A stretch of 64,000 bases of DNA from a virus. Below are positions 33,099-43,087 of the stretch, in pieces; the stretch's first letter is position 1; each line of letters opens with the position of its first letter. The stretch spans positions 104,689-168,688 of the IMG/VR virus record IMGVR_UViG_3300036761_001135, one strand, 5' to 3'. The notes under the pieces were generated by a model that saw only the letters and a list, made by a program, of their open reading frames with translations, was not told where the DNA came from and made no database searches. The position numbers and the translations under genes were made by a program.

Positions 33099-33845
33099 AT
33101 GCCAGGACGCGACGTGAATCCACGATTTATGCAGCGGTGTGTGGCAGATGTGACGGCGACTGGCAAAGAGCTGGGGTCGGCCTTCGCAATCTGTACGGCG
33201 CAATCCCAGAAGTCTGGCTACACTAAGAAAGGCTCGTCCAAGATGACCGGCAAGGGTGCCGCGAGGGAACGGGCTTTCAAGAATGCGCCGGATATGGACC
33301 AGAAGAATGCAGATTACGAGCGTGCGGTGCAGGCCGGGCGCCAGCAGGAGGAGATCAGCATGCGGAGCATTATTCGACAACTCGAAGAAGGGTCCAAAGA
33401 CCGCCCGCGCCATCGGGAGATCTTGTCCGAGATCAAGGCGATGGAGTTGGAAGTGCAACGCATGGCGGAGCGCATCTCGGAGGACGGCGACGAGAAGCTG
33501 GCCGGGTATGCCATGGAGGCCGCTGGCATGCTGGGCAAGGCATGGGTGCGCATGGCCTTCTTCGTGAAGAGCGCCGCTGGAAAGACGATCCGATCCGAGG
33601 AGACGGATGCGGACGATGGCGTGCTGGACGAGCGATTCGGTCGTCGTCAATCCTACAGTCGTGATCCCTACCTCACGAAGGCAAAGACGGCGGGAGTCGA
33701 TGCCAAGGGCCTGGCCTACAAGAAGGGCGACGAGGTCATGATCTACAAGGACGGGGCAACATATGCCGGGGCCAACAAGGACCAGGCGTGGCGGGATTTC
33801 CAGGCGGCCAAGGATGATGAAGCATTCATGAGTGGCGGGTACTGA
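33099..33845 (+). CDS. Multi-module putative internal head protein with internal MRSIIRQLEE tag
   Basis: N-module RCVADV..AFAIC; tag at 33360 preceded by AGGAGGAG; C-module YSRDP..KKGDEV..F.AA.DDE. Confidence 0.75.
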   Translation: MPGRDVNPRFMQRCVADVTATGKELGSAFAICTAQSQKSGYTKKGSSKMTGKGAARERAFKNAPDMDQKNADYERAVQAGRQQEEISMRSIIRQLEEGSKDRPRHREILSEIKAMELEVQRMAERISEDGDEKLAGYAMEAAGMLGKAWVRMAFFVKSAAGKTIRSEETDADDGVLDERFGRRQSYSRDPYLTKAKTAGVDAKGLAYKKGDEVMIYKDGATYAGANKDQAWRDFQAAKDDEAFMSGGY

Positions 33846-33855
33846 TAGCCTGACG

Positions 33856-33869
33856 CGAACCCAGGTTCG
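33856..33869. repeat. Dispersed palindrome copy 6
   Basis: CGAACCCAGGTTCG, intergenic. Confidence 0.9.
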
Positions 33870-33884
33870 TATGGAGGACGGACG

Positions 33885-34649
33885 ATGCGTAGATTATTCG
33901 AGCGGTGTGAGAGGCGGATGAACGAGGAGTATGGCGGCAAGAAGACCGTTCGGGAGCCAGCGTCTCACACGGAGTATATCGAAAAGATTTTGCGGGGCAT
34001 CGGCAAGAAATATGCGACAAGTTACGCTTCGCGTACATCTGGTACCTATACGGACAATCCTCCTTACGACGCGCCAAGTACAAATATTGTGTGGAGTCTG
34101 CCAAATGGTTACGTCAAGTTGTCGATTGAGTCAGATTTGACAGCAGGTGGAGCCCCTCTGAAGACGTTGCGGGCATTTATAGAGCCAGCTTACGCGAACC
34201 GACCGATGACGAAGGTGACAGAAATTGCCAAGGCGTTGAAGGGGGAGCTGGAGGCGGGGGATACAGACTCCAGTGCGGACGCTGAGGAACTCATAGCAAC
34301 TGTGAAGAAGGCGTTTGCTGAATTCGAAAAAGAATACGCAAAACCACAGAAAGCACGCATGCCGACTCCAGTGCCTGTGTTGTCATTTAATACAGAGGAA
34401 GACATGCGATTTTGGAAGGCGGCGGTAGCCGTAGGGGGAACAGCCTCCAGTTCCAACGTGATTCTGAAGATTTCTGGTGCTGAGATTTCAATACACAATC
34501 AGGGTTACTACGGCGGATCGGTAAATATTTATACAAAAGACGAGATGCTGGACAACCATTTGGTGCGCTTGAACGTGGCAGAGCGAGCGTTCCTGCGAGT
34601 CATGCAGCAGCATGGGTGGCTGAAATCTGGCTATGTGCGAGAGATGTGA
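33885..34649 (+). CDS. Hypothetical protein with variant leader MRRLFERCERRMNEE
   Basis: GGAGG RBS, 254 aa. Confidence 0.75.
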   Translation: MRRLFERCERRMNEEYGGKKTVREPASHTEYIEKILRGIGKKYATSYASRTSGTYTDNPPYDAPSTNIVWSLPNGYVKLSIESDLTAGGAPLKTLRAFIEPAYANRPMTKVTEIAKALKGELEAGDTDSSADAEELIATVKKAFAEFEKEYAKPQKARMPTPVPVLSFNTEEDMRFWKAAVAVGGTASSSNVILKISGAEISIHNQGYYGGSVNIYTKDEMLDNHLVRLNVAERAFLRVMQQHGWLKSGYVREM

Positions 34650-34675
34650 CAGACGTAGTTGGTAGCGATCCGACG

Positions 34676-40924: not shown

Positions 40925-40960
40925 AATAGCGCGTACTGCTATCAAGGAGCTTTTGAACCA

Positions 40961-41332
40961 ATGAGACATCTTCTGCGACGGCTAGAAGAGGCCACGGACG
41001 CGCCTTTGGCGACGATCACGGTGCGGGTGGTGGACGGCGCGCAGGCGCGGGCGCAGGACCAGTCGTTCGCGGTAGGCGGGCACCACGAGGTGTACCCGTG
41101 GATTCCACAGGACGAGGTCTGGATCGAGCGTGGGTCGGATGGGCCGGACCGCACGGCGATCCTTGTCCACGAGCTGGTGGAGTGGGCGCTCATGCGGTGG
41201 GATGGGCTGGCCTACGACCGGGCGCACCAATTAGCCAACGCGGCGGAGGAGGCGGTGCGGTTGCGGGTCGGGGTGAAGGACGGGGAGACGCGATCTGCTC
41301 CGGCGGGCCTGCCGGTGGGAGAGGGCAAGTGA
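40961..41332 (+). CDS. Tagged small metal-binding protein (HExxE..H)
   Basis: MRHLLRRLEEA; GGHH..Y..IP.DEVWIE..LVHELVE..AH. Confidence 0.7.
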   Translation: MRHLLRRLEEATDAPLATITVRVVDGAQARAQDQSFAVGGHHEVYPWIPQDEVWIERGSDGPDRTAILVHELVEWALMRWDGLAYDRAHQLANAAEEAVRLRVGVKDGETRSAPAGLPVGEGK

Positions 41333-42624
41333 TGCGACAGCTCATTCGACGCTTGGAAGAGGCGGCTCCGGCTCCTGGATCCAAGGAGTGGCTGGCAGGG
41401 GTCAAGAAGTGGTGGGGGCAGTGGGTTGAAGACGCTGATCGGATTTCAAAAATTCGAGATCAACAGGATCGTCGGCAGGTTCGGGCGTGGTTTGTCGATG
41501 GTGAGAAGCGTTTGAACATGCTTGTGGACGTTTTAGTACGTCGGGCGAATCTCGTAACAGCGCCAGCCCTGGCGAGTATTACGACGGGGGACGACAACCG
41601 AGAGTACAAAGATGGAGTGGGGCGTTTGAAGGTGCCGCGCTCATATAGTGTGCTTGGATTCAAGGTTAAGCCTGAGCCAGGGGATTTAGTGCATTCGCAC
41701 TTGCAGGCGGCTTTGGATTCATTGGGCAATGTGCAGGATCATGAGCAGGATCGCTGGGTAGACATGCAAAGACGCCCGGATGAGAGGGACTGGGGAACGA
41801 CGGGCGATTTAGACGAGTGGCAAGCTTACTTGGAGATTATGCCGCATAACATTTCTGGAGTTGATGCGGACGTGCAGGCGGCGATGCGTAAGTTTGCAAT
41901 GCAAATGAAGTCGGAACCTAATCGGGAGAGCGTCATAAACGACGCAATTCCGTTGGATTATGATTTGGGTGGCATGAAAGTGCTTACCAACCCTGGGTCA
42001 TTGAGTAGTCTGTATTCTGCTGTCACTGGGGATGAGCAGGACGATATGGAAAATGCGATGGTGGATGCTGCCACGTCGAAGGAGGTTCGTGCCGGGTTGA
42101 TGCTGGCACAGAGAGCATTGGAACAGCGTGGTTTTGGTAAGGTTTGGCATGGAAAAATCTATGTGTTGCCACCTCGTCTGGCGGCTACTTTTACGAAAGC
42201 TAAGACCAGGCAGTCATTCTTGTCTGGCGGTCATTACGATCACAGCAAAGATATTGTTGTTATAAATCCAAGGCATAACTGGAAGGCAACGACCATCTCC
42301 GAGATCGTGGTACACGAACTAGGGCATCGCTACTGGTACAGATTCATGAAGGCGGGCGCGCGGGCGCGATTTGCGGCATGGTTCGACCCACGCACCAAGG
42401 CGGAACAAGATCGAGCTGGAGCGAAGTCCGAGTATGTGCCAGCGCCGACGGCGTATGGATCAGAGAGTCCGGTCGAGGAGTTTGCAGAGACCTTCGCAGC
42501 CTACGTGCTGGGAAAATACGAGGGCATAACGCTGACGGGGCCACAGAAGGCACGGTTCGAGGCGTTGGCCCTTGGTAGGGCAGCACAGAGCGAAGACGTG
42601 GAAGAGGCGCTGGGCAAAGACTAG
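41332..42624 (+). CDS. Tagged zincin-like metallopeptidase
   Basis: MRQLIRRLEEA; VVHELGH (HExxH) plus downstream PTAYG..EEFAE.F. Confidence 0.8.
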   Translation: MRQLIRRLEEAAPAPGSKEWLAGVKKWWGQWVEDADRISKIRDQQDRRQVRAWFVDGEKRLNMLVDVLVRRANLVTAPALASITTGDDNREYKDGVGRLKVPRSYSVLGFKVKPEPGDLVHSHLQAALDSLGNVQDHEQDRWVDMQRRPDERDWGTTGDLDEWQAYLEIMPHNISGVDADVQAAMRKFAMQMKSEPNRESVINDAIPLDYDLGGMKVLTNPGSLSSLYSAVTGDEQDDMENAMVDAATSKEVRAGLMLAQRALEQRGFGKVWHGKIYVLPPRLAATFTKAKTRQSFLSGGHYDHSKDIVVINPRHNWKATTISEIVVHELGHRYWYRFMKAGARARFAAWFDPRTKAEQDRAGAKSEYVPAPTAYGSESPVEEFAETFAAYVLGKYEGITLTGPQKARFEALALGRAAQSEDVEEALGKD

Positions 42625-42706
42625 CCATGACGTCCTCGACGCGGCATACTGGCTGCCTGATGGTGTTGTCACCCCGCTGTGAGGCGGTCGAGCAAGGAGT
42701 ATCCCC

Positions 42707-43087
42707 ATGACCGAGCAGTACAAGGCGTTGAACTATGCGGACGGCATGCGCGGGCTGCTGCGGTCCCTGGAGGAAGCCCTCACGGGGCGCTACACGTTCG
42801 TGTTCAAGCCGGTGAAGGAGCGCGTGGGGGCGACAGGCCCGGACAAGACGCTGATCGCGCACCCCACCAAGAAGGTGAGCGTAGAGATCTATTACTACGA
42901 GAAGCCGGATCGGTGGAGCGCGACGATCTTCGATGGGGATGCCGAGGAGGAGTTCACACCGGACTACATCGTGGGCGGCCAGGCGTTCGCCAAGGGGCTC
43001 ACGCAGTCCGAGGCGGAAGAGGCGGCGATTGAGATCACGTTGAAGTACCTGGGGGACAAACGACGCAAGGGCTGGCGGGAGCCGTAG
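42707..43087 (+). CDS. Tagged hypothetical protein (MRGLLRSLEEA at residue 14)
   Basis: AAGGAG RBS. Confidence 0.75.
   Translation: MTEQYKALNYADGMRGLLRSLEEALTGRYTFVFKPVKERVGATGPDKTLIAHPTKKVSVEIYYYEKPDRWSATIFDGDAEEEFTPDYIVGGQAFAKGLTQSEAEEAAIEITLKYLGDKRRKGWREP

Follow-up and report, generated by a model that had tools for sequence, protein, structure and literature searches.

A 10-kb block of genes (positions 33099-43087) in a T4-like phage genome from sediment metagenomes, IMG/VR record IMGVR_UViG_3300036761_001135, is probably one of two accessory-gene arrays whose products share a capsid-targeting, cleavable leader peptide similar to the capsid-targeting sequence (CTS) of phage T4. The record is 168,688 bp (168.7 kb) long, and the stretch analyzed here, hereafter the window, is its final 64 kb; positions are those of the window unless given as genome coordinates, which are obtained by adding 104,688. 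The leader, hereafter the tag, is an amphipathic peptide of 10 residues with the consensus M-R-x-L-I-x-x-L-E-E, followed by A, G or S, and is present on about a dozen unrelated proteins in the block and in ~30 genes genome-wide. The idea of capsid targeting by such leaders is already known from the T4 CTS and from the polymorphic, CTS-bearing internal proteins encoded at two variable loci of T-even phages (PMC9026906, PMC2839356). New here are the scale, the organization in two arrays, the internal in-frame tags that join modules, a family of carrier-cargo proteins and the coincidence of recombination breakpoints with the tags.

A conserved peptide on unrelated proteins

A preliminary description of this DNA had reported ten close copies of the motif, and a six-frame regular-expression scan (M[RQK]x[LIVFM]2xxLEE) of the whole window recovered the same ten, all on the + strand (Table 1), with no strict copy elsewhere in the window in any frame. 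A chance origin was rejected, the pattern having 0 matches in 200 trinucleotide shuffles of the window. The two more degenerate variants reported at 33885 and 39544 are also present. Across the 11 aligned copies, position 8 is occupied by L and position 10 by E, and the following residue is A (6 copies), G (3), S (1) or E (1), hence one of A, G and S in 10 out of 11 copies. At the sequence level, the leader, as had been proposed, ends in a site of the type recognized by the T4 prohead protease gp21, namely hydrophobic-x-Glu followed by a small residue. Several of the N-terminal copies carry a preceding MTT, MTR, MKT or MT, and the tag of the last gene of the array (42707-43087) sits 13 residues from the first ATG.

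The tag is conserved at the level of the peptide, not of the DNA. Pairwise nucleotide identity is 0.65 within the 30-nt leader versus 0.31-0.34 in the flanks, and within the leader it equals 0.68, 0.81 and 0.46 at codon positions 1, 2 and 3, respectively. Pairs of identical residues in different copies share the codon in 38% of cases and use synonymous codons in 62%, with Leu encoded by TTG and the four CTN codons and Arg by CGN and AGA; this agrees with the codon differences remarked on before, and a DNA-level repeat is ruled out by the codon analysis. The sequences behind the tag were described as unrelated and indeed proved to be so: an all-against-all BLASTP comparison of the post-tag parts produced nothing below E = 0.2, which excludes a paralogous family.

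The further claim that no copy exists outside the block holds for the window but not for the genome. A second, looser leader array, with two strict copies (genome 80283 and 83675) and about fifteen looser ones, is located outside the window, 50 kb upstream (genome 77919-90463; 77.9-90.5 kb), with the tail-tube genes on one side and the tape-measure gene on the other. In two relatives, G001 and G003, the position after the tail-tube genes is likewise occupied by an array. As anticipated, the motif is not widespread, being confined to these two arrays, both of which are embedded among virion-gene modules.

Head genes of the phage

The genome (59% G+C, with nearly all long open reading frames (ORFs) on the + strand) encodes a T4-type (gp20) portal (PF07230, 3.8e-59), a T4-type (gp23) major capsid protein (PF07068, 1.2e-68; with ~27% identity to its counterparts in T4-like coliphages) and a gp21-family (S77) prohead protease (PF03420, 51 bits versus a cut-off of 27), the latter having been predicted to co-occur with the tag. 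The presence of all three in one genome identifies the phage, by gene content, as a distant T4-superfamily member. No match among cultured phages was obtained by megablast with the array or by tblastn with the cargo encoded by 40064-40924, and tblastn of the 41332-42624 cargo yielded a single match, to an uncultured jumbo phage.

The prohead protease gene (genome 60337-63132; L005:5338-8133), which lies outside the window, has an unusual organization. It is interrupted by an intein-like insert of ~400 residues that starts with Cys directly after a D-H-P motif and ends with His ... Asn, followed by Ser, and it carries a coiled-coil extension of ~380 residues in the place where T4 has a separate scaffold gene, gene 22. 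The gene looks like an intein-carrying protease-scaffold fusion. Its product contains L-I-E at residues 5-7 (compare 'LIE-9' of T4 gp21; PMC9026906), and the capsid protein contains L-H-E at residue 66, which might be the counterpart of the T4 gp23 maturation site, L-T-E(65).

Conserved boundary at the proposed cleavage site in cargo families

The strongest part of the case for a targeting leader is comparative, coming from cargo families of other lineages and from the leader dialects of relatives. Relatives with 76% and 64% identical capsid proteins carry the same kind of arrays, with the leader in dialects; in more distant relatives, the strict DNA pattern hardly occurs, because other leader dialects are used there. 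The family of the 40064-40924 cargo has members on 41 IMG/VR contigs with a G+C content of 26-68%. Its conserved domain begins at the same point in all members, and the preceding leader varies by lineage, yet nearly all leaders examined end in hydrophobic-x-Glu-(S/A/G/N) directly before the domain. In several low-G+C lineages, the leader reads MKTFYQFLEN or MKTFTQWLEN, close to the T4 CTS MKTYQEFIAE. The genes adjoining distant homologues bear the leader version of their own locus; one of these loci is found 4 kb downstream of genes encoding protease, scaffold and capsid proteins, and an S77 protease was found in 3 of the 5 tested records with distant homologues. The family of the 41332-42624 cargo has L-E-E|AAPAPG in one lineage versus L-L-E|AAPAPG in another, so that P3 Leu and P1 Glu are held at the boundary and P2 is free. 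Judging from these alignments, two cargo families retain the hydrophobic-x-Glu boundary even as the remainder of the leader diverges.

In the AlphaFold (AF2) model of the 40064-40924 product (predicted local distance difference test score 86.8), the tag forms a helix of its own, after which comes a hinge of low confidence at the site of the proposed cut, and the C-terminal ~100 residues are predicted to adopt an ADP-ribosyltransferase (ART) fold. The best Foldseek matches of the model were Tpt1/KptA and PARP domains (E = 3e-3, probability 1.0). With residues 187-284, VIA gave Z scores of 8.7-5.0, including TreTu (8.7), the catalytic domain of diphtheria toxin (8.3) and KptA (7.8), and nearly all of the top 50 matches were ART domains. 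R197, R237 and Y261-Q262 are invariant in 21 homologues, with no clear catalytic Glu. The protein has no Pfam or PHROG match; ESM Atlas pointed to PARP/Tox-ART for it, as a lead only, and offered no lead for the 33099 gene. The product of 41332-42624 contains an HExxH motif and is metallopeptidase-like, with a weak match to PF15887 (E = 0.0035) that falls below the family cut-off.

Internal tags and carrier proteins

The tag is not simply an N-terminal label, since it is often internal: 5 of the 12 copies are, and it lies within the frame of 33099-33845 (at residue 88), 34709-35935 (twice) and 37330-37908. Module C of the three-module ORF 34709-35935 spans the whole profile of phrog_9437, a stand-alone family of 98 residues, and exists as a small separate gene in 28 cultured phages. 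The product of 33099-33845 belongs to a family of 20 sequences in which an N-terminal domain of ~88 residues is strongly conserved and followed by the tag, with M88 nearly invariant and E97 invariant. Behind the tag, the family displays at least 8 unrelated C-terminal parts, one of which is the phrog_9437 module, so this module sits behind the tag in two different contexts. A sequence search of the PDB with the carrier domain as query gave no match. Given the internal tags and the carrier-tag-cargo family, phages of this kind may also build cleavable polyproteins; as far as we searched the literature, no description of cleavable polyproteins was found for T4-type internal proteins.

Exchange of cargos at the tag

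The sister phage L003 is 97% identical in shared genes, and the array is a mosaic between the two phages. Homology to L003 stops at or inside tags at 35051, 37552-37586, 39543, 40976 and 41344; in 37330-37908, it is limited to 35 nt of the tag. Likewise, contigs from three other sediment metagenomes, compared at 90% likeness and hence representing relatives, not the same strain, are joined differently at 33376, 35051 to 35618, 37583 (in two other metagenomes), 38427/38428, 40065, 40098 and 42762. About 9 of the 20 joint ends fall inside tags, which cover ~3% of the stretch. Regions that single metagenome runs do not cover were left out of this evidence. With breakpoints relative to both L003 and the metagenomes at the tags, the leader also appears, from these alignments, to be a crossover point for the exchange of cargo cassettes between phages, because every cassette starts with the same ~30 nt.

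In one metagenome, the tag of the 38390 gene (window 38430) precedes a different cargo, the first residues of which resemble those of a gene of the upstream array (genome 80592). This hints at possible exchange between the two arrays.

The remaining L003 breakpoints (33869, 34667 and 38362) coincide with a 16-bp palindrome, GCGAACC-NN-GGTTCGY, which is present in 27 copies genome-wide, among them those at 33855-33870, 34675-34690, 38362-38377 and 43311-43326. One pair flanks the gene 33885-34649, absent from L003, and a third copy sits at the 38362 breakpoint. The palindromes resemble cassette borders of a second type.

Interpretation and alternatives

Capsid targeting, as put forward in the preliminary description, is the best reading of the tag and gains support from the comparative data and from the ART fold. 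By analogy with T4, we infer that the leader would dock the protein to the scaffolding core during prohead assembly and that the gp21-family prohead protease would then cut after the Glu of L-x-E, upon which the freed cargo would remain in the head and enter the host with the DNA. Internal in-frame tags could act as cleavable linkers, releasing several modules from one precursor or a cargo from the conserved carrier domain.

Several observations weigh against this reading. Neither the phage nor any close relative of it is in culture, and the likeness between the leader of its clade and the T4 CTS, too short for statistics, is limited to length, the spacing of hydrophobic residues and the L-x-E at the end. 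Most cargos are acidic or neutral, whereas T4 internal proteins are basic. The T4 CTS has been shown to work N-terminally, and the internal copies therefore call for an extra assumption, namely, that an internal copy still targets or that it serves as a cleavage linker only. The motif had been expected in scaffold or core proteins, but the whole tag was not found in the candidates for these, which have L-x-E-type sites only. Finally, since the upstream array adjoins tail genes, a tail destination of the tagged proteins is possible.

This position of the upstream array, shared by G001 and G003, together with the scarcity of basic cargos and the lack of a whole tag in the scaffold candidates, would fit a helix that is not a label for head cargo but a docking handle for some other partner, such as the tail lumen or tape-measure complex, a phage chaperone or a host factor. 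We regard this as improbable. A hydrophobic-x-E/small-residue boundary kept across very different leaders fits a prohead-protease site, the homologous cargos elsewhere bear near-T4 CTS leaders and adjoin head genes, and gene position says little, as T4 alt also adjoins tail-tube and baseplate genes. We consider it very improbable that the repeat functions as an element of nucleic acid, be it a region of translation initiation, a structure in the mRNA or a DNA site bound by a protein, with peptide likeness as a by-product. Met is invariant even in internal copies, and many copies, internal ones included, are preceded by a Shine-Dalgarno-like GGAGG, as such an element might require; however, the identity at third codon positions is far lower than at second ones, most identical residues are encoded by different codons, with switches between TTG and CTN for Leu, and the flanks are not conserved. 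The DNA-level repeat of this region is instead the separate palindrome, which in the window lies beside only 3 of the 12 tag copies.

The mosaic structure of the array bears on yet another explanation, a fairly unlikely one, according to which the motif serves solely as a linker for maturation or recombination: a conserved junction at which modules are swapped and perhaps cut, with no role in capsid addressing, much like the demarcation motifs found ahead of the variable C-terminal domains in polymorphic toxins. The L003 breakpoints, the excess of metagenome joint ends in leaders, the carrier family with its constant N-domain and motif and its many C-parts, and the two contexts of the phrog_9437 module are all as expected for such a junction. 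A pure DNA crossover site would, however, conserve third codon positions, which is not so here, and the invariant Glu with the small residue after it points to a protease site. Moreover, the 10 residues of T4 do both jobs, so that the linker explanation is a subset of capsid targeting by a cleavable leader.

It is possible, though we advance this more tentatively than the capsid-targeting reading itself, that a whole clade of T4-like phages from sediment operates a protein-delivery system that is expanded and ready for recombination. In that case, ~30 labelled cargos per genome would be loaded into the head, cut at L-x-E and injected, the internal tags would give rise to polyproteins that can be cleaved and to fusions of carrier and cargo, a design known elsewhere from polymorphic toxins, and the arrays would represent a catalogue of counter-defence or takeover effectors. 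The cargos concerned include the predicted ART-fold enzyme, the metallopeptidase-like protein and modules that are free-standing in other phages. If the tag works as in T4, sequence alone would suffice to list the proteins injected by a phage along with its DNA, proteins that are the first to meet host defences and are otherwise hard to find. Thirty tagged genes swapped at the tag between sister phages would then be a rich source of candidate counter-defence or host-takeover effectors and, if the reading is true, foreign proteins could also be loaded into capsids with the tag as a natural plug-and-play label.

Comparison with known systems

In T4, the internal proteins (IPs) and Alt are bound to the scaffolding core by propeptides of 10-19 residues, and gp21 cuts after Glu; in the IPIII leader, residues 4 and 7 play a part in targeting and residues 8 and 10 in processing (PMC9026906, PMC9958956, PMC5694885). 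Reviews (PMC9026906, PMC9958956, PMC3012670) credit Mullaney & Black 1996 with the CTS of IPI, IPII, IPIII and Alt and its removal by gp21. In the T4 record, IPII and IPIII share their first ten residues, which end in I-A-E and are followed by A, and the first ten residues of Alt, itself a packaged ART with its own leader, end in D-E. The array resembles this system in having a leader of ~10 residues on otherwise unrelated proteins, ending in hydrophobic-x-Glu followed by a small residue, in the homologues of gp20, gp21 and gp23 encoded by the phage, in the ART fold predicted for one cargo, as in Alt, and in the leaders, close to that of T4, on homologous cargos of other lineages. It differs in the dialect of the leader (MRxLIxxLEE), in the number of tagged genes (~30 per genome versus four in T4), in their packing into two arrays, in the internal in-frame copies that would yield multi-module precursors and in the charge of the cargos, which are mostly acidic or neutral.

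The IP loci of T-even phages are described as polymorphic (Repoila et al. 1994; Comeau et al. 2007, the latter with >30 IP variants; both via PMC2839356 and PMC9026906). In these accounts, as here, there are two variable loci at which the leader is conserved and the rest of the gene is replaced, and the shuffling is attributed to short conserved sequences at cassette borders. Unlike here, the T-even variety, as portrayed there, is spread over many phages with few genes each, and the borders are early-promoter stem-loops, in contrast to the leader coding sequence and the GC-rich palindrome of the present arrays.

The inner-body or ejection proteins of phiKZ, 201phi2-1 and SPN3US have long N-terminal propeptides that are cut at (S/A/G)-x-E by gp21-related proteases (PMC5694885, PMC10052503). 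Points of likeness are the cleavage after Glu at several sites per precursor, the propeptides of >100 residues and the paralogues with identical N-termini; those phages have no single short tag on dozens of unrelated proteins, however, and their P3 residues are small, unlike the Leu found here. Encapsulin cargo-loading peptides are another case in which a short terminal peptide loads a foreign protein into an HK97-fold shell; they are unrelated in sequence, usually C-terminal and not removed. Phage P1 DarB has a signal for packaging at its N terminus, and there, too, a short terminal peptide suffices to load a foreign protein into such a shell, although its sequence is unrelated and the P1 Dar proteins have no shared consensus (PMC9024508).

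Gene content of the array

The genes of the block are listed in Table 1. Four of them are untagged, including an S-adenosylmethionine decarboxylase-like gene in the middle of the array that is also kept in the sister phage. Most cargos remained without a name in Pfam and PHROGs searches.

Table 1. Genes of the tagged array in window coordinates, with strict or degenerate copies of the tag
Gene	Position	Strand	Features
Carrier-tag-cargo gene	33099-33845	+	Conserved N-domain of ~88 residues (AFAIC motif), internal strict tag 33360-33389, variable C-part
Degenerate-tag gene	33885-34649	+	N-terminal tag 33885-33914; insertion relative to sister phage L003; flanked by palindromes 33855-33870 and 34675-34690
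Three-module ORF	34709-35935	+	Module A, strict tag 35021-35050, basic low-complexity module B, strict tag 35591-35620, module C
Untagged gene	35945-36592	+	No family match
Untagged gene	36577-36918	+	No family match
Untagged gene	36953-37318	+	No family match; conserved in L004
Internal-tag gene	37330-37908	+	Strict tag 37558-37587 behind an N-part of 76 residues
Tagged gene	37905-38345	+	MTT prefix, strict tag 37914-37943
Tagged gene	38390-38914	+	MTR prefix, strict tag 38399-38428; palindrome and Shine-Dalgarno sequence directly upstream (38362)
Untagged S-adenosylmethionine decarboxylase-like gene	38942-39538	+	Pfam PF02675, E = 1.1e-18
Degenerate-tag gene	39535-40047	+	MKT prefix, tag 39544-39573
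Tagged gene, predicted C-terminal ADP-ribosyltransferase-fold domain (residues ~187-284)	40064-40924	+	Strict tag 40070-40099
Tagged gene, 123 residues	40961-41332	+	Strict tag 40961-40990
Tagged gene, HExxH	41332-42624	+	Strict tag 41332-41361; start overlaps the preceding stop as TGATG
Last gene of the array	42707-43087	+	Strict tag 42746-42775

As to expression signals, T4 late promoters were considered and rejected, TATAAATA being absent from the + strand of the genome, and scans for sigma-70 promoters and terminators performed no better than on shuffled sequences. Immediately 3' of the array (43116-44096), there are several small ORFs with hydrophobic or Gly/Ala-rich stretches, which could form a lysis or membrane-protein cluster.

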